A stretch of 39,287 nt of DNA from the sequence record OQ921333.1. One strand, 5' to 3'. Shown here piece after piece: positions 5,864-37,465 of the stretch (positions are counted from its first letter, which is position 1; each line of letters begins with the position of its first letter). Origin of the DNA: Escherichia phage vB_EcoP_PAS61. The translations under genes were made by a program, and so were the position numbers. Under the pieces are notes generated by a model. That model was not told the origin of the DNA. It saw nothing but the letters and a program-made list of their open reading frames with translations, and did no database searches.

Positions 5864-6448
5864 TTATTGTTTGTTTTTTTCGTTCTGGTTGATGACAAAT
5901 TCAATGTAACTTTCGATCTTTGCTTTCTCGGTTTCGGGTAACAATGCGTAGCGCGAGCGATCATAGTTGATGGTCGCAGGGTCGTGCGGGTGAATCAGTA
6001 ATTCATAGCCGTGACGCCCGAATGCGGATGCAACATTCTCCAGGGTGGAAATGGAAACGCTGACCTCATTGTTTAACAGGCGGCTGATTGTCACCTGGGC
6101 TACGCCGGATGCGCGGTGAAGTTTTCCCTGTGTTGAAAGGTCGCGGCTTTCGCTCATCCAGCGTTCCAGGTTGTGAGCCGCCAGCTGGCCAATGTCGCTT
6201 GGGCCGACAGGCTGAAAACCTTCCTGAGAAAGCGAGCGATCGATATCAAGCCAGTTACGGGGTTTATTGGCGGCAGCTTCAATTTTTCGCGCAACCTGGT
6301 CGCCGATAACCTTCTTGCCAAGAGCCCAGCGGTTTACCAGATTTGCCTGAGTTCCAAGTTTTTCTGCCATCCGCGTCTGAACACCATTGAATTCACGGTC
6401 GATCAAGTCGTTGAGATTTTGCCTGCGGACGTCCTGGATACTTTTCAT
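5864..6448 (-). CDS. Putative prophage repressor (CI-like role) with two helix-turn-helix regions; no obvious LexA-like S24 peptidase domain
   Basis: 194 aa; HTH-like segments GVQTRMAEKLGTQANLVNRW and GKLHRASGVAQVTISRLLNNE; divergent from a Cro-like gene across an operator-rich intergenic region. Confidence 0.55.
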   Translation of the reverse strand: MKSIQDVRRQNLNDLIDREFNGVQTRMAEKLGTQANLVNRWALGKKVIGDQVARKIEAAANKPRNWLDIDRSLSQEGFQPVGPSDIGQLAAHNLERWMSESRDLSTQGKLHRASGVAQVTISRLLNNEVSVSISTLENVASAFGRHGYELLIHPHDPATINYDRSRYALLPETEKAKIESYIEFVINQNEKNKQ

Positions 6449-6503: not shown

Positions 6504-6590
6504 TTACCCAACAGGTAAATGCACCCCATAGGTAACTATCCTTGATTTTTGTTACCTTATGGGTGAATATTTATTATCTGAAATAAATAT
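6504..6590. promoter_or_regulatory. Divergent immunity promoter/operator region (oR-like): TTACCCAACAGGTAA (6504-6518), inverted GGTAAC/GTTACC half-sites (6524-6566), TTGATT -35-like hexamer (6542-6547), AT-rich palindrome TATTTATT-N6-AATAAATA (6568-6589)
   Basis: Motifs read directly from sequence between the repressor (-) and Cro-like (+) genes. Confidence 0.5.
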
Positions 6591-6602: not shown

Positions 6603-6833
6603 ATGAGCGATAACGGACATTTCGATTTCAAAAAGCACTGGCTTGCACTTACTCCGGATGAGCGTGAAGCCTTCGCACAGGAAGCCGGAACGACGAGTCA
6701 CTATATCCAGACTCACTTAACAGGTAAGCGCAAAATGCCAGGTAAAGTATTGATGAATGGGCTTTTTAAAGCCTGTAAATCAAGACAATGGTTGCGCTCA
6801 AAAGCAGAACTGGCATACTTCTTCTACTCATGA
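6603..6833 (+). CDS. Putative Cro-like early regulator (position-based call)
   Basis: 76 aa ORF transcribed divergently from the repressor immediately after the operator region; weak HTH-like segment. Confidence 0.4.
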   Translation: MSDNGHFDFKKHWLALTPDEREAFAQEAGTTSHYIQTHLTGKRKMPGKVLMNGLFKACKSRQWLRSKAELAYFFYS

Positions 6834-8834: not shown

Positions 8835-8911
8835 TTACCTATAAGGTAACAAAATATTCTAAACTCTATTGATTTCGTGTCTTATGTGGTTTTTAATTAC
8901 CTTAGAGGTAA
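8835..8911 (+). promoter_or_regulatory. Promoter/operator region: TTACCTATAAGGTAA (8835-8849), -35 TTGATT (8869-8874), spacer containing TTATGTGGTT, -10 TTTAAT (8892-8897), TTACCTTAGAGGTAA (8897-8911) overlapping the RBS of the downstream gene
   Basis: Motifs read directly. Confidence 0.45.
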
Positions 8912-12015: not shown

Positions 12016-12346
12016 ATCAGCAGCAGAGCGCAAAGCCGCTCAGAGAGCCAGACAAGCTGCATCTGGTGTGCGTAAGCTGGAAATTGTGCTTGATGCTCAG
12101 GAAATTGAAATGCTGGAGCGTAACTGTGCCACGCGTCGCCCCGGGCGTGCGCCTTACGAATTTGGTGAGTATATAGCGTTACTGATCCGCCAGGATGATG
12201 CACGCGTGCGCGGGCGTATAAAATCGATCAGCAGAAAATGTTGCGGTAAGTGCGGCGAGAGAGTTCCAGTTAATTCATGCCCGTGTAATGGTGACTCGCA
12301 ATGCTGGGTGACTAAAGGCTGGCATGAAACGAAATTAATAGTGTGA
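12008..12346 (+). CDS. Cys-rich zinc-finger protein immediately upstream of the late operon; candidate late-gene regulator/antiterminator (Q-like role)
   Basis: 112 aa; CCGKCGERVPVNSCPCNGDSQC cluster; stop codon overlaps the GTGACATGTCAC palindrome; followed by an intrinsic terminator and then the terminase genes. Confidence 0.45.
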   Translation: MAKSAAERKAAQRARQAASGVRKLEIVLDAQEIEMLERNCATRRPGRAPYEFGEYIALLIRQDDARVRGRIKSISRKCCGKCGERVPVNSCPCNGDSQCWVTKGWHETKLIV

Positions 12347-12395
12347 CATGTCACGAGTAGATTATGCATGATGAATTTGATGGGTTTTGAATACT

Positions 12396-14584: not shown

Positions 14585-14610
14585 GCCAGCTCATCGGCTG
14601 GCTGTTTGTG
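14585..14610. terminator. Bidirectional terminator-like hairpin (GCCAGC-TCATCG-GCTGGC) with U-rich flanks, between terminase large subunit and the antisense moron
   Basis: Stem-loop read directly; adjacent to GTGACATGTCAC palindrome at 14608-14619. Confidence 0.45.
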
Positions 14611-14623
14611 ACATGTCACGGTG

Positions 14624-15610: not shown

Positions 15611-15677
15611 TTACCTGAAAGGTAATAATTCACGCGTTAAATGTCAACCTTCTACGATAAATAAATCATATGTGGTT
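15611..15677. promoter_or_regulatory. Regulatory region upstream of the portal module: TTACCTGAAAGGTAA (15611-15625), TTGACA on minus strand (15647-15642), CATATGTGGTT (15667-15677)
   Basis: Motifs read directly. Confidence 0.4.
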
Positions 15678-15715
15678 AAATTGGTAATAATTTAATTGCG
15701 TACGGAGTCATTGAT

Positions 15716-19143: not shown

Positions 19144-20136
19144 ATGACAATGTCTGTTAAAGGCTTAACTGCGCTAACGCTGGCTGACTGGGGTAAGCGC
19201 GTCGATCCAAACGGGAAAGTCGATAAGATTATCGAGCTTCTCGGTCAAACTAACCCGATCCTTCAGGATATGCCTTTTGTCGAAGGGAACCTTCCTACCG
19301 GACACCGAACCACCATTCGTTCTGGTTTACCTTCAGCTACCTGGCGTTTGCTGAACTATGGCGTACAGCCAAGCAAATCAACCACAGTGCAGGTAACCGA
19401 TTCCGTGGGCATGCTGGAAACCTATGCTGAAGTCGATAAGTCACTGGCTGATCTGAACGGCAATACCGCCGAATTCCGCCTGTCTGAAGACCGCGCATTT
19501 ATTGAAGCGATGAATCAGCAGATGGCGCAGACGCTGTTTTATGGTGATTCCAGCGTTAACCCTCAGCAGTTTATGGGACTGTCCTCCCGCTATTCCAGCC
19601 TGTCTGCGGGTAATGCTCAGAACATCATTGATGCTGGTGGCACGGGTACAGATAACACCTCAATCTGGTTAGTGGTGTGGGGCGAAAACACCGTGCATGG
19701 CATCTTCCCGAAAGGGCAGAAGGCTGGCATCCAGATGGAAGATAAAGGCCAGGTGACACTGGAAGATGCTAATGGCGGCAAGTACGAAGGCTATCGCACC
19801 CATTACAAATGGGACAACGGACTTGCTCTGCGTGACTGGCGTTATGTTGTTCGCATTGCAAATATCGATGTCAGCAATCTTTCAGAACCTTCCTCTGCCG
19901 CAAATATTGCGAAGTTGATGGTTAAAGCACTACATCGCATTCCAAACCGTGGCATGGGCCGCCCGGTGTTCTACATGAACCGCACTGTAGGCCAGGCTCT
20001 TGATCTGCAGTCTCTGGAGAAAACATCTCTGGCTATCAGCGTAAAAGAGACTGAAGGCGAGTGGTGGACTTCATTCCGTGGTGTACCAATCCGTGAAACT
20101 GATGCGCTTCTGGAAACAGAAGCCCGCGTGGTGTAA
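19144..20136 (+). CDS. Major capsid protein
   Basis: 330 aa; position after scaffold; strong RBS; followed by stem-loop. Confidence 0.8.
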   Translation: MTMSVKGLTALTLADWGKRVDPNGKVDKIIELLGQTNPILQDMPFVEGNLPTGHRTTIRSGLPSATWRLLNYGVQPSKSTTVQVTDSVGMLETYAEVDKSLADLNGNTAEFRLSEDRAFIEAMNQQMAQTLFYGDSSVNPQQFMGLSSRYSSLSAGNAQNIIDAGGTGTDNTSIWLVVWGENTVHGIFPKGQKAGIQMEDKGQVTLEDANGGKYEGYRTHYKWDNGLALRDWRYVVRIANIDVSNLSEPSSAANIAKLMVKALHRIPNRGMGRPVFYMNRTVGQALDLQSLEKTSLAISVKETEGEWWTSFRGVPIRETDALLETEARVV

Positions 20137-30041: not shown

Positions 30042-32516
30042 ATGAGACAGGAATGTATACAAGCGGTCCAGCAGGCGGCGCAGCGCACGTTAACGGCGCG
30101 AGAAATACAGAACATTGAAGACCGCATTTATCGAAATATGCGCTCCATTGCTCGTGATGACCCGATGTCGTGGAGACAACTTTCCGAATCAGAGCGGCTA
30201 TATCGTGCAGCACAATTGGCATCTGAAGAATTACAGCGAGAAGCGGCATTAAAGAAACGTCGTGTGGCCCTCACTATAGCCGCACGTCAGAGATTGGATA
30301 AATTTATCAATAGCTATCAAGGGGCTGATGGGAAACTTGGCGCTCTTAACCGTACTATTGCTTTTAATGCAGACGGTAAATCGAATTTCCTCTCTGTTGA
30401 GTCCAGAACAAAAGCCACTCGTGATTATGCATTGAGTCAATTGCAGGAGGCATTCGAAGCAGTTGATCCTCGCTTTTTTGTTCTGTTTGAAGATGAAGCG
30501 GGCGTACGTGACCTGGTATATGAAATGCGAGGGCAAAATACTGGCAATGCTAAAGCAAGAAAAGGTGCTAAGGCGTGGAGAGAAGTGACAGATCTACTGC
30601 GCCGCCGGTTTAATGATGCTGGTGGGGACATTGGCTATCTCGAAAACTGGGGGATCCCTCAACATCATTCTATGGAAAAGGTTGGGGCGGTATCAAAGGA
30701 TAAGTGGGTTAGCGATGTTATAGGTAAGCTGGATCGCAAATATTATATCCGAGCCGATGGACAACTGATGAACGATGCCGAGTTGTCTGCATTTCTTGGA
30801 GAGGCTTATAACACGATCGCTACTGGTGGGCTGAATAAGCTTACTGATACCGGAATGCGAATTTCCGGCGCACGTGCTAACCGTGGTAATGCATCACGAC
30901 AGATACATTTCAAAGATGCAGATTCCTATCTGCAATATCAGCAACTTTATGGCGATCGCTCTCTATGGGAAATCATAGTCGGTCACCTGGAAGGTATCAG
31001 TAAAGATATTGCACTGGTGGAAACATATGGCCCAAACCCCGATCATGTTTTCCGCTCTCTTCTTGATCAGGTTAAGGCAGAAACGGCAACTGCTAACCAG
31101 AGTAAAACCGGTAAAGTCGAGCGGCTGGCGAACAACACAGAGAATCTGTACAACTTTATTTCCGGAAAGACACAGCCTGTAGCGAATCCGCACATCGCGC
31201 GATGGTCTGACAATATCCGCAACTGGCTGGTTGCCAGCAGACTCGGATCCGCGTTGCTGTCATCGTTCTCTGATCTTGGAACCATGTATCTGTCTGCGAA
31301 GGTTACCAACCTTCCAATGAACCAGTTATTCCGCAACCAGCTTGAAGCTATGGACCCAACGAACCGTACAGAACTTGCGCGGGCGCGCCGCGCTGGTCTG
31401 GCGATGGAATCTCTACTTGGCAGCGTTAACCGCTGGGCGATGGATAATATGGGGCCGTCAGTGTCTCGTTGGGCGGCAACGGCGGTAATGCGTGCCAGTG
31501 GGCTTACAGCATGGTCAGATGCGCACAAGCGCGCCTATGGCGTAACCATGATGGGAAGCCTGGGAGAAGTAGTGTCACGGACACCAGACCTTCGTAGCCT
31601 CGATGACTCTGATTTTCGTATCCTGAAAAGCAAAGGGATTACTGACACAGACTGGAGCGTATGGAAGTTGGCGCAACAGGAGGACTGGGGGAACGGTAAT
31701 AATACGATGCTGACACCGGAAAGCATTATGCGTATCCCTGATTCAGCAGTTAAACATCTTGGTGAGCCTGAACGCGTGAAATTTGAGGCAATGCGTAAAC
31801 TGCTCGGTGCCGTAACTGAAGAAGTTGATATGGCTGTTATTACACCGGGAGCACGTGAGCAACTGATAACCGGTTCTGGTATTCAGCGTGGAACATGGAA
31901 AGGTGAATTAACGAGAAGTGTTTTCCTGTTTAAATCGTTCCCTATCTCGGTTGTTATGCGTCACTGGTCACGCGCTATGGGTATGCCGTCTGCTGGTGGG
32001 CGTGCGGCATATATTGCGACGTTTATTGCCAGTACGACCATTCTTGGCGCTTTGTCGCAGCAACTTAACGACCTTGCGTCTGGTCGTAATCCTCGAGAGA
32101 TGACAGGAGAAGATGCCGCAAAATTCTGGCTTGGTGCTCTACTGAAAGGTGGTGGTCTTGGCCTTTACGGTGACTTTTTATTGTCAGATCACACTAGGTA
32201 CGGAAGCGGCGCGCTGGCATCGATGCTTGGCCCGGTAGCTGGTCTGGTTGATGACGTAGTGAAGATTGCTCAGGGCATACCGTTAAATGCTGTGGAAGGG
32301 AAGAATGAGCAGACTGGTGGTGATCTGGTTAAGCTGGGGAAAGGTCTGATGCCAGGTGCGAATCTCTGGTACTTAAAGGCGGCTCTCGATCACATGATCT
32401 TTAACCAGATGCAGGAGTATTTTTCACCAGGTTATTTGCGTAAAATGGAGCAACGTTCGAAGAAAGAGTTTAACCAGACATACTGGTGGCGACCACAGGA
32501 TGTCACTCCGCAATAA
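30042..32516 (+). CDS. Internal virion/DNA-ejection protein
   Basis: 824 aa; last gene of the injection block, followed by terminator. Confidence 0.55.
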   Translation: MRQECIQAVQQAAQRTLTAREIQNIEDRIYRNMRSIARDDPMSWRQLSESERLYRAAQLASEELQREAALKKRRVALTIAARQRLDKFINSYQGADGKLGALNRTIAFNADGKSNFLSVESRTKATRDYALSQLQEAFEAVDPRFFVLFEDEAGVRDLVYEMRGQNTGNAKARKGAKAWREVTDLLRRRFNDAGGDIGYLENWGIPQHHSMEKVGAVSKDKWVSDVIGKLDRKYYIRADGQLMNDAELSAFLGEAYNTIATGGLNKLTDTGMRISGARANRGNASRQIHFKDADSYLQYQQLYGDRSLWEIIVGHLEGISKDIALVETYGPNPDHVFRSLLDQVKAETATANQSKTGKVERLANNTENLYNFISGKTQPVANPHIARWSDNIRNWLVASRLGSALLSSFSDLGTMYLSAKVTNLPMNQLFRNQLEAMDPTNRTELARARRAGLAMESLLGSVNRWAMDNMGPSVSRWAATAVMRASGLTAWSDAHKRAYGVTMMGSLGEVVSRTPDLRSLDDSDFRILKSKGITDTDWSVWKLAQQEDWGNGNNTMLTPESIMRIPDSAVKHLGEPERVKFEAMRKLLGAVTEEVDMAVITPGAREQLITGSGIQRGTWKGELTRSVFLFKSFPISVVMRHWSRAMGMPSAGGRAAYIATFIASTTILGALSQQLNDLASGRNPREMTGEDAAKFWLGALLKGGGLGLYGDFLLSDHTRYGSGALASMLGPVAGLVDDVVKIAQGIPLNAVEGKNEQTGGDLVKLGKGLMPGANLWYLKAALDHMIFNQMQEYFSPGYLRKMEQRSKKEFNQTYWWRPQDVTPQ

Positions 32517-32525
32517 GGATGAGAA

Positions 32526-32666
32526 ATGATTGCTTTTATTCTTGTTGTGTTTGCGCTTGTTGCACTTGGCGTTATGAACCGTAAATGTATCATTGACGAT
32601 GGCGAATTTGCTGTTGCAGTTATTTTGATATTATCTGGTGTAGCAGGGTACATAGGCTTGTCATAA
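32526..32666 (+). CDS. Small hydrophobic membrane peptide (46 aa)
   Basis: Hand translation MIAFILVVFALVALGVMNRKCIIDDGEFAVAVILILSGVAGYIGLS; AAGGA RBS 6 nt upstream; below ORF-track cutoff. Confidence 0.4.
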   Translation: MIAFILVVFALVALGVMNRKCIIDDGEFAVAVILILSGVAGYIGLS

Positions 32667-32686
32667 CGTGAGCGTGACATGTCACA

Positions 32687-32712
32687 GGCCGCTTTCGCGG
32701 CCTTTAAATTTA
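32687..32712 (+). terminator. Rho-independent terminator (GGCCGC-TTTC-GCGGCC + U-rich tail) ending the injection operon
   Basis: Perfect 6-bp GC stem plus U-run; GTGACATGTCAC palindrome directly upstream. Confidence 0.6.
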
Positions 32713-32967
32713 CCGGGTTTGTTTTCGTAATTGTTCGGCACAATAGTCGAGATGTGTTTGCAGATCCTGCATAGACATCTGTGAGCTGGTGACGTAGTTA
32801 ATCAGTGCAGTCAGTTCGGCAAGTGGGCCATCGACATTAAATCCATCCTTATCGAGATCCCGGAGTAATTTCATCAAGTGCGATCCATCCACCAGTGACC
32901 TGACGCCTCCCGGCGTGTGAATCCTTTCGGTAAATCCGTCTTCCAGTGGATAGTGATACTGCTGCAT
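32710..32967 (-). CDS. Moron gene of unknown function (85 aa) with its own promoter/operator
   Basis: Start moved to internal ATG (MQQYHYPLEDG) with GGAG RBS; upstream 41 codons of the track ORF run through AT-rich regulatory sequence. Confidence 0.5.
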   Translation of the reverse strand: MQQYHYPLEDGFTERIHTPGGVRSLVDGSHLMKLLRDLDKDGFNVDGPLAELTALINYVTSSQMSMQDLQTHLDYCAEQLRKQTR

Positions 32968-33004
32968 CTTATCTTCTCCATGCAATAACTGTATATTTAT
33001 ACAG

Positions 33005-33098
33005 TAGCAAATAATTTGTTTGCTATCCAGCACGTTTTGCAAATTACCAGAAAGGTAATATCTATTCTTATTCACAGTCTTTCTATCCATATGTGGTT
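33005..33098. promoter_or_regulatory. Regulatory region between moron and tailspike: perfect palindrome TAGCAAA-N7-TTTGCTA (33005-33025), TTACCAGAAAGGTAA (33044-33058), CATATGTGGTT (33088-33098)
   Basis: Motifs read directly. Confidence 0.45.
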
Positions 33099-33162
33099 TT
33101 TCAGGTAATAGAATAACTAGATATGCGGCGCAACGGGTGCTGCGACTATCTGGAGATTTAAC

Positions 33163-35400
33163 ATGACGGTCTCAACCGAAGTTGACCACAACGAATACAC
33201 AGGTAACGGCGTTACAACATCATTTCCGTATACCTTTAGGGTTTTCAAGGAATCTGATCTGGTAGTACAGGTGGTTGACTTGAACGAGAATATCACTGTG
33301 CTGGTTCTTGATACTGATTACACAGTTACAGGGGCTGGAGGATATAACGGCGGCAATGTAATTCTGTCGAAGGCGTTGGCTAACGGTTATCAGATTTCTA
33401 TATCACGAGAGCTGCCGGTTACGCAGGAAACAGATCTACGCAATCAAGGCAAGTTCTTTGCAGAGGTGCATGAGGATGCGTTTGATAAGCTAACGATGTT
33501 GATCCAGCAGGTTAGAAGTTGGTTTAGCTTGGCGCTTCGCAAGCCGTCATTCGTGGCAAACTATTATGATGCGCTTAACAATTACATCAGAAATTTGCGT
33601 GACCCGTTACTTCCGCAGGATGCTGCAACAAAGAATTATGCTGATGAGCTTAGCGCAAATAACACGTCACACACTGATTTTCTCTTTAGCAGAACGCTGA
33701 GAACTGCGGAAGAAATACCACAACTACCTTCCATTGAGTTCAGAAGAAACAAAATCATCGGGATGGATAACGATGGCAATCCGATAATGCTTGTTCCTGA
33801 GTCAGGATCAGCTTCTGATGTTTTAATTGAGTTGGCAAAACCAACTGGTGCTTCATACATAGGGATCCCTAAAGGAGGGTTTCTATCAGACGTTTTATAC
33901 TATTCCACCCCTAAAGAATTCGGTGGGGTTGGCGATGGTATTACTGATGATACGGCAGCGATTGTTGCAGCAGTAAATACCGGATTGCCATTGGTCTTAT
34001 GTGGTGGTAAATGGCGGATAACATCCACTATAGAGCTTCCTGATTGTTATGCAGTGGACGCAAGATGTTCTCACATTATAGCTGATACCGGTTTTCAGCC
34101 TGTTTTTTTATTTAAGGGAAAAAACTATGGGCTTCATTATGCTGGTGGTCTTGTAACAGGAACCGCCAGTTCATTCATGTATATTGAAGGTGAGACTGAC
34201 GTTCCTACGACCAGTAACCAATATGCAAAATTGGTTGAGTTGTATGGTGTGAATATTTCTTCAAAAACCATTATAACCTCACTGATAATGAAAAAAGCAG
34301 TTCGGCAGATATTTATTGATTCATGTTTTTTCTACTCTAAAAATGGCATTGAAGCAGAGGGAAAAACAGTTGAGATTACAATTGACAAATCAATAATATA
34401 CGGTTCAACAGCAGACACTGACAGTTTTGGCATCAAGCTTTCTAGCACAGGTGGAACCAGGTTTTACAACGAAGGATGGCATATTTCAGATTCTACTATT
34501 GATAACTTTGCTAACACGCTTGATTTGGCTGATATATTTGTATTTACAGTTAGTAAAGGTTATGTTGCATGCAATGCGACAACGGCATATGCTGTTACTA
34601 TCAGACCACCAACCACAACAACGCATACTCGAGAAATTCAATTTGATGGTGTTCTTGGCGGAAAAATTAGATTTCTTGATACAGTTTCTGGTCAGACAAT
34701 ATTTCACACAAAAATTTCTGGTGAGATTACAAACTGCAAACAGGGAACTTGTCTTTCCATAGGAGCAAATGCCGCAGGAATTGATATTAGAAGCCTGAGA
34801 GTTACTTCCTCACCTGGATGTACATTATCATCAGTAGCAAATGGATCAGCAAACATTAATTATTCTGATATTTCTACTGATTCATCTTTGGCTGCAGGTA
34901 TTATCTTCAATGGTGAAGCAGGTGGTAATTGCTCAATATCAGACTACCTGTACTCAGGGACTGGAGAGGCGTTATCACTTGCTAGGCCGGTTAAGCTTTC
35001 CAATGTTCCTACAGTTGGTAGCGAAACTTTGAATTGGTCTATAAAGTACGATTATGTATCTGCATCAAAAGATGTCGCAGTTGGAGCATACATAAACCAA
35101 CTTCAAATGACTATTGCAAGATATAGTAAGATAGAGATCAATATAAATCTTTCATATTCTGGGGGCGCAGAGAGCAATGCCCAGGCAATTGGAATAACAG
35201 CTCCTACTGGAGTGGTTCTGCCAAATGGTACAAACTCGATGCTGTTCACATTACCAGCAACGGCGGGATCATTGACTATGAGCATTGTTGCTACAACAAC
35301 GCTAGACTTCAAGAACCTGTCATTCAGCATCGATAACAGAGCTGGTAACCAACTGCGGATTTTGGCCGGTTCCCACTTGTCTGTATCGCTGGCTAACTGA
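33163..35400 (+). CDS. Tailspike protein: T7 gp17-like N-terminal adaptor domain plus beta-helix (pectate-lyase-like) receptor-binding/depolymerase body
   Basis: 745 aa; N-terminus TGNGVTTSFPYTFRVF...DTDYTV; GGVGDGITDDTAAI motif typical of right-handed beta-helix tailspikes; AT-rich. Confidence 0.75.
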   Translation: MTVSTEVDHNEYTGNGVTTSFPYTFRVFKESDLVVQVVDLNENITVLVLDTDYTVTGAGGYNGGNVILSKALANGYQISISRELPVTQETDLRNQGKFFAEVHEDAFDKLTMLIQQVRSWFSLALRKPSFVANYYDALNNYIRNLRDPLLPQDAATKNYADELSANNTSHTDFLFSRTLRTAEEIPQLPSIEFRRNKIIGMDNDGNPIMLVPESGSASDVLIELAKPTGASYIGIPKGGFLSDVLYYSTPKEFGGVGDGITDDTAAIVAAVNTGLPLVLCGGKWRITSTIELPDCYAVDARCSHIIADTGFQPVFLFKGKNYGLHYAGGLVTGTASSFMYIEGETDVPTTSNQYAKLVELYGVNISSKTIITSLIMKKAVRQIFIDSCFFYSKNGIEAEGKTVEITIDKSIIYGSTADTDSFGIKLSSTGGTRFYNEGWHISDSTIDNFANTLDLADIFVFTVSKGYVACNATTAYAVTIRPPTTTTHTREIQFDGVLGGKIRFLDTVSGQTIFHTKISGEITNCKQGTCLSIGANAAGIDIRSLRVTSSPGCTLSSVANGSANINYSDISTDSSLAAGIIFNGEAGGNCSISDYLYSGTGEALSLARPVKLSNVPTVGSETLNWSIKYDYVSASKDVAVGAYINQLQMTIARYSKIEININLSYSGGAESNAQAIGITAPTGVVLPNGTNSMLFTLPATAGSLTMSIVATTTLDFKNLSFSIDNRAGNQLRILAGSHLSVSLAN

Positions 35401-35507
35401 TGATGTTATGACATGGATGTCAAATGATTCAGCGTATGAAATGGAATGGTAGTCGCTTTCGTGCTATAACCTGCTGATTCGTTTACTGAGCAGACTTGAA
35501 CATTGTA

Positions 35508-37364
35508 ATGAAAGTTAATAACTTCAGATATGACATTAACGGATTAAGGGCATTAGCAGTTATCTCTGTTGTTGCTTATCATTTTTCTGCAGACTTCCTT
35601 CCTGGTGGATTTGTCGGTGTTGATGTATTTTTTGTCATATCCGGGTTTTTGATGACCTCAATTATTTTTAGAGGAATTAGCAATAATAACTTTTCTGTCT
35701 TTAATTTCCTGAAAGCCAGAGCGAAAAGGATAGTCCCTGCGCTAACATTTGTTGTTGGTTTGGTGCTGATCGGCGGATATCTTTGTTTTGATGCTATGTC
35801 ATATAAAATAGCTGGAGACCATGCGCTTTCAAGCCTGCTATTCTACTCTAATTATTTTTACGAGGCTGAAGCTGGGTACTTTGATGCTGAATCAAAAGCA
35901 AAGGTTCTTCTTCATACCTGGTCACTATCTGTTGAGTGGCAGTTTTATATAATATATCCGATTGTCTTGTTTTTCCTGAGCAAGGTAATTTCATTAAAGC
36001 AGTTAAAGATATTTATACTGGTGCTTGCCATAGCATCTTTTTCTTATTGCGTGTATGTGACAAAAGTAAACCCCATATCGTCTTACTTCATGATATATAG
36101 TAGGGCTTGGGAAATGATGCTCGGTGGCATCGCTTTTCTATACCCATTAAATGTTAATGAAAATAAGCGAAGATACATTGAATTCATTGGGCTGGCACTC
36201 ATAGTTGTTTCAATGATGGCAATTGATGATAAAACACCGTGGCCTGGAAAGATGGCGCTAATACCTGTCCTTGGTGCCTATCTTGTCATTCTTGCAAAAA
36301 GCAATAACACAATCCTGTCTGGAGAATTAATAAATAGACTAGGGCTGTGGTCTTATTCAATATATCTTATTCATTGGCCTGTGCTTGTTTTTTCACATAA
36401 AATGAACGTGGATTTACCATTTATATGGTATTTTTCATTTGTATTGATATTCTCATTTATAACATATGAGATAATTGAAAAAAGAAGAAGTTACGGAAGG
36501 GGTGCTGTTTTTGTTTTCATCATGGCTGTAGCAGCGTCGTGGTACGTTGGAATAGATGGTGTTGCTGACAGGATTAATAATCAGGAATACAAAATATCAA
36601 AACCGCAATTCAGGGCAAAATACGAAGGTCACCTTGGCATTCATTCAACAGAGGAAGTTAAGTATTTCAACAGTAATGAAAATAACTTTGAATACATCCT
36701 TATTGGTGATAGCCATGCCAGACACTACTATGCCTACATTCAGGATTCAGGTGCTAAGGTTGCATCGTTCGCAGTTGATGGGTGTGAGGTAACAAAGCAC
36801 TTTATGAGTCCCATTGGATGGTCAGAGAAGACAAGAGCTATGTGTGCCAGCAGGTATAAAAAAGCCGTTGACTTCATTAACTCACATCCAGGAAAGCCGG
36901 TTATATGGTCCATGCTATGGAGGGGTGGCGTGATCGGTGAGCCAATAAACGATGGTGAAACAAATCCAAACGACATTATCAGTGAGATGGCATTCTTCCT
37001 GGAAGACATCAAATCCTCTGGTTCTTCGCTATTTATTATTGGAGACACTCAGGGCAGTGACAGAATTATGTTCGAGTGTCTTGCAGGGCAAGATCTGCCA
37101 ATCAATAAGATACTTAATCGCTGTGAAACGACTCAGAAGGAAAAGAAATTCCCTATAAGTGAACGGTTTAAAGAATTTGCATCGAAGCACAGCAATGTTC
37201 ATTTTATCGATCCTACGCCAGCGTTATGCCGCGATGGTGAGTGCGTGATTGTTTATGATGGTATGCCTGTATATACCGATAACGATCACTTTACTAAACA
37301 ATGGTCTATTAATGTCGGTTCATTCATTTTCAATAAAATCAGAGAAACTCAACATACTGATTAA
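35508..37364 (+). CDS. Acyltransferase-3 family membrane O-acetyltransferase with C-terminal SGNH domain (OafA/Oac-like; likely O-antigen acetylation)
   Basis: RYDINGLRALAV..VV.YHF N-terminus typical of acyltransferase 3; multiple TM segments; C-terminal GDSHA SGNH motif; alternative TTG start at 35496. Confidence 0.85.
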   Translation: MKVNNFRYDINGLRALAVISVVAYHFSADFLPGGFVGVDVFFVISGFLMTSIIFRGISNNNFSVFNFLKARAKRIVPALTFVVGLVLIGGYLCFDAMSYKIAGDHALSSLLFYSNYFYEAEAGYFDAESKAKVLLHTWSLSVEWQFYIIYPIVLFFLSKVISLKQLKIFILVLAIASFSYCVYVTKVNPISSYFMIYSRAWEMMLGGIAFLYPLNVNENKRRYIEFIGLALIVVSMMAIDDKTPWPGKMALIPVLGAYLVILAKSNNTILSGELINRLGLWSYSIYLIHWPVLVFSHKMNVDLPFIWYFSFVLIFSFITYEIIEKRRSYGRGAVFVFIMAVAASWYVGIDGVADRINNQEYKISKPQFRAKYEGHLGIHSTEEVKYFNSNENNFEYILIGDSHARHYYAYIQDSGAKVASFAVDGCEVTKHFMSPIGWSEKTRAMCASRYKKAVDFINSHPGKPVIWSMLWRGGVIGEPINDGETNPNDIISEMAFFLEDIKSSGSSLFIIGDTQGSDRIMFECLAGQDLPINKILNRCETTQKEKKFPISERFKEFASKHSNVHFIDPTPALCRDGECVIVYDGMPVYTDNDHFTKQWSINVGSFIFNKIRETQHTD

Positions 37365-37465
37365 GATCCCTCCGTTATTTGGTATCTAGGTAACATGTAA
37401 CCACATATGGTTTATAGTGTATGATGAACTCACCAACTAAGGGGGTTCTTCATGCACATTAAACG

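Follow-up and report, generated by a model that had tools for sequence, protein, structure and literature searches.

A probable LexA-controlled Ant/Rep induction switch upstream of the tailspike gene in Escherichia phage vB_EcoP_PAS61

The closest described counterpart of the region studied here is the Ant-Rep-LexA switch of phage SPC32H, which was reportedly described by Kim and Ryu in 2013 and by Kim et al. in 2016, and whose structures are said to be those of PDB entries 5D50 and 5D4Z. We analysed the corresponding region (32526-33098) of Escherichia phage vB_EcoP_PAS61 (record OQ921333.1), in which a gene for an 85-amino acid (aa) protein, ant, lies on the minus strand upstream of the tailspike gene; the whole analysed stretch of 39,287 nucleotides (nt) is referred to as the window. 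Our conclusion is that, with a probability of roughly 0.88, the region is a LexA-controlled, SOS-responsive Ant/Rep induction switch of an epsilon15-like temperate phage. Such a switch is already known from SPC32H and is not a new immunity island.

According to later papers citing the SPC32H work, Ant is made after LexA has cleaved itself and inhibits the repressor through protein-protein contact (PMC7380047), two Rep dimers are engaged by one Ant tetramer and the Rep tetramer is broken up (PMC9638917), and the C-terminal tetramerisation domain of Rep is the site to which Ant binds (PMC9986798). LexA-controlled antirepressor logic in other temperate phages is likewise described (PMC7380047; PMC3121763).

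The antirepressor gene and its partner repressor

The gene at 32710-32967 (minus strand) is, judging from its database matches, the orthologue of SPC32H ant. Its 85-aa product was 86.7% identical in tblastn to the protein annotated as 'ant: anti-repressor protein' in SPC32H and SPC32N, shared 96-99% identity with E. coli phage products annotated as 'hypothetical proteins', and matched phrog_450 with E=2.4e-47. Residues 2-84 were aligned with chain E of PDB 5D50 ('Anti-repressor protein', 86 aa) with E=1e-46. Given that a structure has been solved at 87% identity, the identity of the 85-aa protein can be regarded as settled, and its length is close to that of an SPC32H-type Ant (about 86 aa). 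The ratio of non-synonymous to synonymous substitution rates (dN/dS) of the gene was about 0.06 when compared with SPC32H and epsilon15, which indicated purifying selection. The Shine-Dalgarno (SD) sequence GGAG (32976-32979, minus strand) is located 8 nt before the ATG and was invariant in 11 of 11 ant-tailspike spacers, which were aligned from phages of Escherichia, Salmonella, Enterobacter and Klebsiella. No meaningful match to Pfam, NCBIfam or PADLOC and no Pfam antirepressor domain were found for the 85-aa product, and the matches to DUF724, DUF5367 and UpsF obtained for the small proteins of the region were far under the cut-offs. Similarly, an Rfam search of 32300-33300 at permissive thresholds gave only a chance snoRNA match (E=0.37). 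The 85-aa protein had been proposed in the original prediction, which was made from the sequence alone, as a candidate for superinfection exclusion or DNA binding; it is instead orthologous to a repressor-binding protein.

The predicted target of Ant is a 194-aa prophage repressor, Rep, encoded at 5864-6448 on the minus strand. When SPC32H Rep was used as a tblastn query, this product was found with 42% identity, and chain A of PDB 5D50 ('Repressor') matched it over the full length (E=4e-42). Pfam identified helix-turn-helix (HTH) families only and no peptidase S24 (self-cleavage) domain in the protein, and the window thus contains a cognate Rep homologue lacking a RecA-dependent self-cleavage domain. 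The window Rep was 100% identical to the repressors of ZX5 and phiV10, and overexpression of the ZX5 repressor (ORF21) has been found to block lytic growth and abolish free phage (PMC9782041). Ant was present in 34 phage records and Rep in 35, with a nearly identical breakdown by host. Divided into three segments, Rep was 49%, 32% and 44% identical to SPC32H Rep, and the operator half-sites were alike in both phages. An identity of 87% for Ant and 42% for Rep, combined with like operator half-sites, implies mosaic exchange of the immunity region.

The closest relatives of the region were found among the temperate podophages of Uetakevirus (phiV10, vB_EcoP_ZX5, SPC32H, epsilon15, Tyrion and Klebsiella phages), and the window is, by this comparison, an epsilon15-like (Uetakevirus) temperate phage of E. 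coli. The original prediction had likened it to P22; tblastn with P22 gp16, gp9 and C2 gave no significant match in the whole window. The order of the genes (those for the 824-aa protein and the 46-aa membrane protein, then the terminator, minus-strand ant and the tailspike gene) is that of SPC32H genes 018 to 021. As in the SPC32H module, ant and the tailspike gene diverge, and ant and the late operon converge on a terminator that both transcription units share.

The LexA box and the predicted ant promoter

A LexA (SOS) box, which reads TACTGTATAAATATACAGTT on the ant strand, is located at 32987-33006, with the core CTGT-N8-ACAG at 32989-33004 and a spacer made up entirely of A/T. The top inverted repeat in the 195-bp spacer between ant and the tailspike gene, ACTGTATA-TT-TATACAGT at 32988-33005, is this same box. 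It agrees at 18 of 20 positions with the 20-bp E. coli consensus, TACTGTATATATATACAGTA, and like other boxes of the E. coli SOS regulon it is near-consensus in sequence and placed at a (predicted) promoter. To score the window we used a heterology-index (HI) matrix built on 19 E. coli boxes, the values from which are approximate. Among the 78,536 positions scored, the box had an approximate HI of 1.8 and the runner-up one of 9.4. This second-best LexA-like site, TGCTGTTCACATTACCAGCA at 35240-35259, is located inside the tailspike coding sequence and is probably due to chance.

All 11 relatives, spread over four host genera, had kept the box, which formed one of the four conserved blocks in the spacer alignment. 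It aligned with the SPC32H box and had the same placement relative to the SD sequence and the ATG, immediately upstream of ant. Since the distance from the end of the box is 21 nt to the ATG and 8 nt to the SD sequence, any ant promoter must overlap with it. When the deposited genomes of SPC32H and SPC32N were compared there were two base differences, one of which turns ACAG into AAAG in the homologous box. This fits the reported finding of Kim and Ryu (2013) that Ant is constitutive in SPC32N as a result of a point mutation in the LexA box.

A candidate ant promoter was found at 33001-33029 (minus strand), with TGGATA (33029-33024) as -35, a 17-nt spacer and TACTGT (33006-33001) as -10. In a relaxed, conservation-based hexamer search this was the sole pair in register in 11/11 relatives, in which the TGCTGGATAG block was also conserved. 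The candidate -10 is identical with the upstream arm of the LexA box, and these hexamer positions would thus make box and promoter overlap, as expected for an SPC32H-type switch.

The TAGCAAA-N7-TTTGCTA palindrome (33005-33025) essentially constitutes the 17-nt spacer of the candidate ant promoter. Within the alignment it was confined to the four near-identical E. coli phages and missing from the other seven, and in the relatives from Salmonella, Enterobacter and Klebsiella its place was taken by unrelated, non-palindromic sequence. A perfect inverted repeat with arms of at least 7 bp was obtained in 18% of dinucleotide shuffles of the 195-bp spacer, and no second copy of the palindrome was found in the window. 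The palindrome was rejected as an operator on the basis of conservation, chance and copy number, and we read it as a chance symmetry in the variable spacer of the likely ant promoter.

It was observed that Ant and Rep are homologous to those of SPC32H, that synteny is kept and that the LexA box is present, strong and conserved, and each defining feature of the SPC32H-type LexA-Ant-Rep switch that a sequence can test is found in the window. In the lysogen, host LexA would be bound at 32987-33006, covering the -10 and the start region of the ant promoter, and ant would be silent. Rep, having no self-cleavage domain, would be unable to sense RecA directly. Upon DNA damage LexA would cleave itself, the 85-aa Ant would be made and bind to Rep, and the lytic genes would be derepressed; in the SPC32H homologue, the Ant tetramer reportedly splits the Rep tetramer into two dimers, which leave the DNA. 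Transcription of ant and of the convergent late operon would both end at the hairpin at 32686-32703, and the 46-aa gene would be simply the final cistron of that operon, encoding a small membrane protein. The ATTACC-N5-GGTAAT repeat and the CATATGTGGTT block in the spacer would be parts of operator and late-promoter systems that extend over the whole phage, and would most likely act on the tailspike promoter. Mitomycin C induces the close relative ZX5 (PMC9782041).

Several points weigh against this interpretation. The ant hexamers are weak, with 4/6 (TGGATA) and 3/6 (TACTGT) matches, and a standard promoter scan made no call. Identity to the SPC32H protein is only 42% for Rep (44% in the C-terminal part, to which Ant binds) as against 87% for Ant, and that Ant recognises the Rep of the window is an assumption. 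For the window phage, LexA binding, the start of ant and the binding between Ant and Rep are steps that we infer from sequence, and the mechanism itself was taken from papers that cite the SPC32H work. Finally, some E. coli relatives carry a second antirepressor of the Bro-N type, which is absent from the window and which is treated as the functional one in the ZX5 paper (PMC9782041).

Other elements of the region and rival explanations

The inverted repeat ATTACC-N5-GGTAAT at 33043-33059 (core TTACC-N5-GGTAA at 33044-33058) is a member of an operator family and a predicted Rep site. There were 8 exact and 3 one-mismatch copies of TTACC-N5-GGTAA in the window, starting at 238, 5730, 5792, 6504, 6552, 8835, 8897, 12433, 12451, 15611 and 33044, compared with 0.67 expected, and SPC32H had 18 copies. 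The copies were concentrated beside rep and ahead of the major transcription units. At 33043-33059 the half-sites were invariant and the spacer variable in the 11 relatives. Seven sites of this type are annotated as protein_bind 'repressor' in the epsilon15 GenBank record, an annotation that is itself a prediction, and these include the site at 19895-19911 in the gp19-tailspike spacer, which is homologous to 33043-33059. Two TTACC-N5-GGT(A/G)A sites (6504-6566) are located in the spacer between rep and the divergent gene in the cro position (6603-6833), and the one at 6552-6566 lies, by eye, between a -35-like TTGATT and an A/T-rich -10 of the rightward promoter of the cro-position gene. Pairs of copies were also seen with a centre-to-centre distance of 18, 48 or 62 bp (5730/5792, 6504/6552, 8835/8897 and 12433/12451), a spacing that may relate to binding of the Rep tetramer.

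The CATATGTGGTT motif (33088-33098) would be part of a late-type tailspike promoter and not a control element of ant. The candidate promoter (33086-33114, plus strand) consists of this motif, 7 nt and TAATAG/TAGAAT (33106-33114), and the block was conserved in the 11 relatives. Three exact copies of CATATGTGGTT were found in the window, ahead of the gp3/portal operon, the tailspike gene and the lysis cassette. Both in the window and in SPC32H the module is made up of a TTACC-N5-GGTAA site, 29-41 nt, a CATATGTGGTT-type motif, 7 nt and a -10-like hexamer TAnnn(T/G/A), and the lack of a good -35 suggests that an activator is needed. Modules of this late type were seen at 15611-15700, 33043-33114 and 37380-37430 (also 8835-8911). 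The functions given here to the operator and to the late motif in the spacer are those that we infer from their sequence and placement.

At the other end of ant, a hairpin (AGGCCGC-TTTC-GCGGCCT, 32686-32703) followed by a T/A tract was identified in a terminator scan (32686-32712). The RNA folds of both strands were about -17 to -18 kcal/mol, the stem was invariant and the loop variable in 5 phages, and a terminator is annotated at the matching position in the phiV10 and epsilon15 records. By these features the hairpin is the common terminator of the late operon and the convergent ant. The 12-bp perfect palindrome GTGACATGTCAC (32674-32685) is located between the stop codon of the 46-aa gene and this hairpin and was invariant in 5 phages despite diverged flanks. 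It had three exact copies in the window (12343-12354, 14608-14619 and 32674-32685), compared with an expected count of 0.17 for matches with at most 1 mismatch, and SPC32H and epsilon15 had it at the same three syntenic operon ends as the window (2145, 19634 and 38629 in L004; 2142, 19517 and 39612 in L006). In the direction of transcription, every copy comes after a stop codon and before a rho-independent terminator hairpin. The palindrome could act in termination or antitermination, or could bind a protein.

The product of the 46-aa gene (32526-32666, plus strand) is a small membrane protein containing two hydrophobic helices, and the gene is most simply read as the final cistron of the late structural/ejection operon. 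The open reading frame (ORF) starts 9 nt past the stop codon of the 824-aa late gene, with an SD-like AGGA/GGAT 8 nt upstream, and no promoter-like site was found within 600 bp upstream. The product matched phrog_7892, which has no assigned function (E=5.5e-33), and showed 85-98% identity across 14 phage records, which annotate it as 'putative integral membrane protein'; the phiV10 record gives two transmembrane helices. A dN/dS of 0.19 against SPC32H indicated purifying selection. No meaningful match was found in PADLOC, Pfam or NCBIfam. In epsilon15 and BUCT554 the same slot is occupied by an unrelated 64-aa hydrophobic protein.

The divergent tailspike gene (33163-35400, plus strand) is an ORF annotated as tailspike or tail fibre in the relatives. 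Just upstream of its ribosome-binding site there is a GC-rich block (33123-33143), GCGGCGCAACGGGTGCTGC in the window and GCGCGCCGGGCGC in SPC32H, which was partially conserved in 11/11 relatives and might serve as a leader structure or binding site. Downstream of the tailspike gene and on the same strand there is a TTG-start ORF of 622 aa (35496-37364, plus strand), which looks, by eye, O-antigen acyltransferase-like; in SPC32H and phiV10, by contrast, oac is found at the post-tailspike position on the opposite strand. The attachment core ATTGAGTGGGAATGATT, which is the Uetakevirus core and attP of ZX5, phiV10 and epsilon15 with integration at guaA, was present in a single copy at 88-104, just upstream of the integrase gene (295-1551). 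Running from the attachment core to the lysis genes, the window resembles a complete phage genome that has been opened at att.

The original prediction interpreted the region as an immI-like island, with two small genes for superinfection exclusion or secondary immunity and with the 85-aa protein or another phage factor binding to the TAGCAAA palindrome. All the features that it listed were confirmed: the 46-aa ORF, the palindrome with the terminator and the 85-aa minus-strand frame are where it placed them, as are TAGCAAA-N7-TTTGCTA (33005-33025), TTACC-N5-GGTAA (33044-33058) and CATATGTGGTT (33088-33098), and both small ORFs are under purifying selection (dN/dS 0.06 for the 85-aa and 0.19 for the 46-aa gene, against SPC32H). 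The location between the ejection-protein genes and the tailspike does match the map of P22 immI, by positional analogy alone, and the 46-aa product is membrane-embedded as are many exclusion proteins. However, P22 SieA, Orf59a, Mnt, Arc and Ant gave no significant tblastn match in the window and nothing in 32400-33200; the best E was 0.17 for Mnt and Arc, 0.39 for the 300-aa Ant (elsewhere in the window) and 5.4 for SieA. Of the supposed immI-equivalent slot, what remains is an antirepressor gene with a control site of its own, and none of the immI proteins has a homologue there. The predicted operator also exists as a control site, but it is the LexA box at 32987-33006, which had been missed, and not the palindrome, which is confined to four near-identical E. 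coli phages, equalled in 18% of shuffles and present as a single copy. Neither small protein belongs to a PADLOC family, the 85-aa protein is orthologous to one that binds a repressor and not DNA, and nothing found for the 46-aa gene, which lacks a promoter of its own, supports expression from the prophage or a role in exclusion. The spacer between ant and the tailspike gene contained one 30-aa TTG-start ORF only. Taken together, an immI-like island is very improbable. It is hardly credible that the real gene is instead the 126-aa ORF from 33090, within which the 85-aa frame begins at an internal ATG and which would put the control sites inside coding sequence. This frame is open from 33090, but the annotated and crystallised homologue has 86 aa and aligns from residue 2, which places the start of ant at 32967 and not at 33090. 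Moreover, the conserved GGAG lies 8 nt before the ATG at 32967, and the extension would take in both the operator and the LexA box as well as blocks in which the relatives differ by indels. The extended ORF was rejected on the length and alignment of the homologue and on the pattern of conservation in the spacer.

Two further explanations would add to the LexA-controlled switch and a third concerns the 46-aa gene. It is possible, if somewhat doubtful, that a dual lock operates in which Rep binds to 33043-33059 and represses ant, the divergent tailspike promoter or both in addition to the repression by LexA. This would be in line with the strong over-representation of the operator family and its clustering around rep, with the invariant half-sites and variable spacer in the 11 relatives, with the annotation of the homologous epsilon15 site as repressor-bound and with the similar operator-type sites that precede the other two late-type motifs by 29-41 nt. 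Against it, the predicted starts of ant and of the tailspike transcript lie about 57 bp and about 70 bp, respectively, downstream of the centre of the site, which is thus beyond both promoter cores at their predicted positions, and the epsilon15 annotation is itself a prediction. The single LexA-box change in SPC32N, with the derepression that it is said to cause, also argues that Rep alone does not silence ant. More broadly, and unlikely when taken as a whole, the spacer might combine the LexA switch with a set of genus-wide elements, namely a Rep-type operator midway, the late element CATATGTGGTT and the palindrome GTGACATGTCAC. If this were true, the operator between the divergent promoters might act as a Rep 'second lock' or a looping anchor, CATATGTGGTT would be a late-promoter element common to three late transcription units, and GTGACATGTCAC would be a termination or antitermination control site at operon ends. 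A related point is that an Ant conserved at 87% beside a Rep at 42% would mean that Ant can act on many different Rep variants, and cross-induction among co-resident Uetakevirus prophages would then be possible. As for the 46-aa protein, a role as a prophage-expressed factor of the moron type, for exclusion or lysogenic conversion, seems improbable. The protein is small and conserved (dN/dS 0.19), has two transmembrane helices and a terminator directly 3', and the different hydrophobic protein in epsilon15 and BUCT554 would fit the replaceability of morons. Yet the gene follows the stop codon of the 824-aa late gene by 9 nt with no promoter-like site in the 600 bp upstream, its product has no defence-family match, and its GC content (about 0.39-0.43) is just slightly under that of its neighbours.

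Comparison with known systems

The stretch was matched in 537 of 5426 complete E. coli genomes (about 10%), 60 of which had the same uninterrupted arrangement. The ant gene is annotated as 'hypothetical protein' in phiV10, ZX5 and RefSeq E. coli genomes, and a common 'hypothetical' gene can thus be corrected to ant. Given a LexA-Ant-Rep switch, these O-antigen-modifying prophages are expected to be inducible by DNA-damaging agents. In the ZX5 study induction was credited to the Bro-N-type antirepressor, and neither the ant gene nor the LexA box was mentioned (PMC9782041). Our findings add no biology beyond that of SPC32H; their value lies in the corrected annotation and in the candidate regulatory motifs.

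The region resembles immI of P22 (sieA, orf59a, mnt, arc, sar and ant) in having an antirepressor with its own control region between the last ejection gene and the tailspike gene. It differs in that the proteins are not homologous and no sieA is present in the window. P22 Ant is a 300-aa protein controlled by Mnt, Arc and the sar RNA and not by LexA, and P22 ant is co-oriented with the tailspike gene whereas the ant gene of the window is divergent from it. P22 stays SOS-inducible through cleavage of C2 (PMC7380047).

The C-terminal 78 or so residues of the Bro-N antirepressor encoded by ZX5 ORF4 are 38% identical to Ant (E=5e-13). Unlike Ant, this is a 231-aa protein with two domains, and it is absent from the window, where the terminator directly follows ant. 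An extra Bro-N 'anti-repressor' gene was seen just downstream of ant in several E. coli and Enterobacter relatives. ZX5 ORF4 (1774-2469 in L012) and phiV10 p22/p23 (2009-2688 in L002) are located between the terminator and ant, a place with no such gene in the window (32686-32710), and in phiV10 the Ant-like match is split across two reading frames (p22/p23). Overexpression of ZX5 ORF4 favours lytic growth (PMC9782041).

The antirepressors of 186 (Tum), Gifsy and Fels-2 follow the same logic as Ant, in that a small protein repressed by LexA inactivates a repressor that is not cleavable. Ant, with no Pfam or NCBIfam match, was likened to them by this logic and not by direct sequence comparison. 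Kim and Ryu reportedly describe Ant as differing in structure from these antirepressors.

The system that corresponds to the region in most respects is that of SPC32H. The differences are that the host of the window phage is E. coli, that Rep is 42% identical, that the switch is known here from sequence alone, that Ant is one residue shorter near the N-terminus (MQQY instead of MQRQY) and that the sequence of the promoter spacer differs, being palindromic by chance in the window phage. The two have in common an orthologous Ant (87%), the order and orientation of the genes, the placement of the LexA box, the terminator and the GTGACATGTCAC palindrome, as well as a homologous Rep of 194-198 aa with an HTH only and the TTACC-N5-GGTAA operator family.

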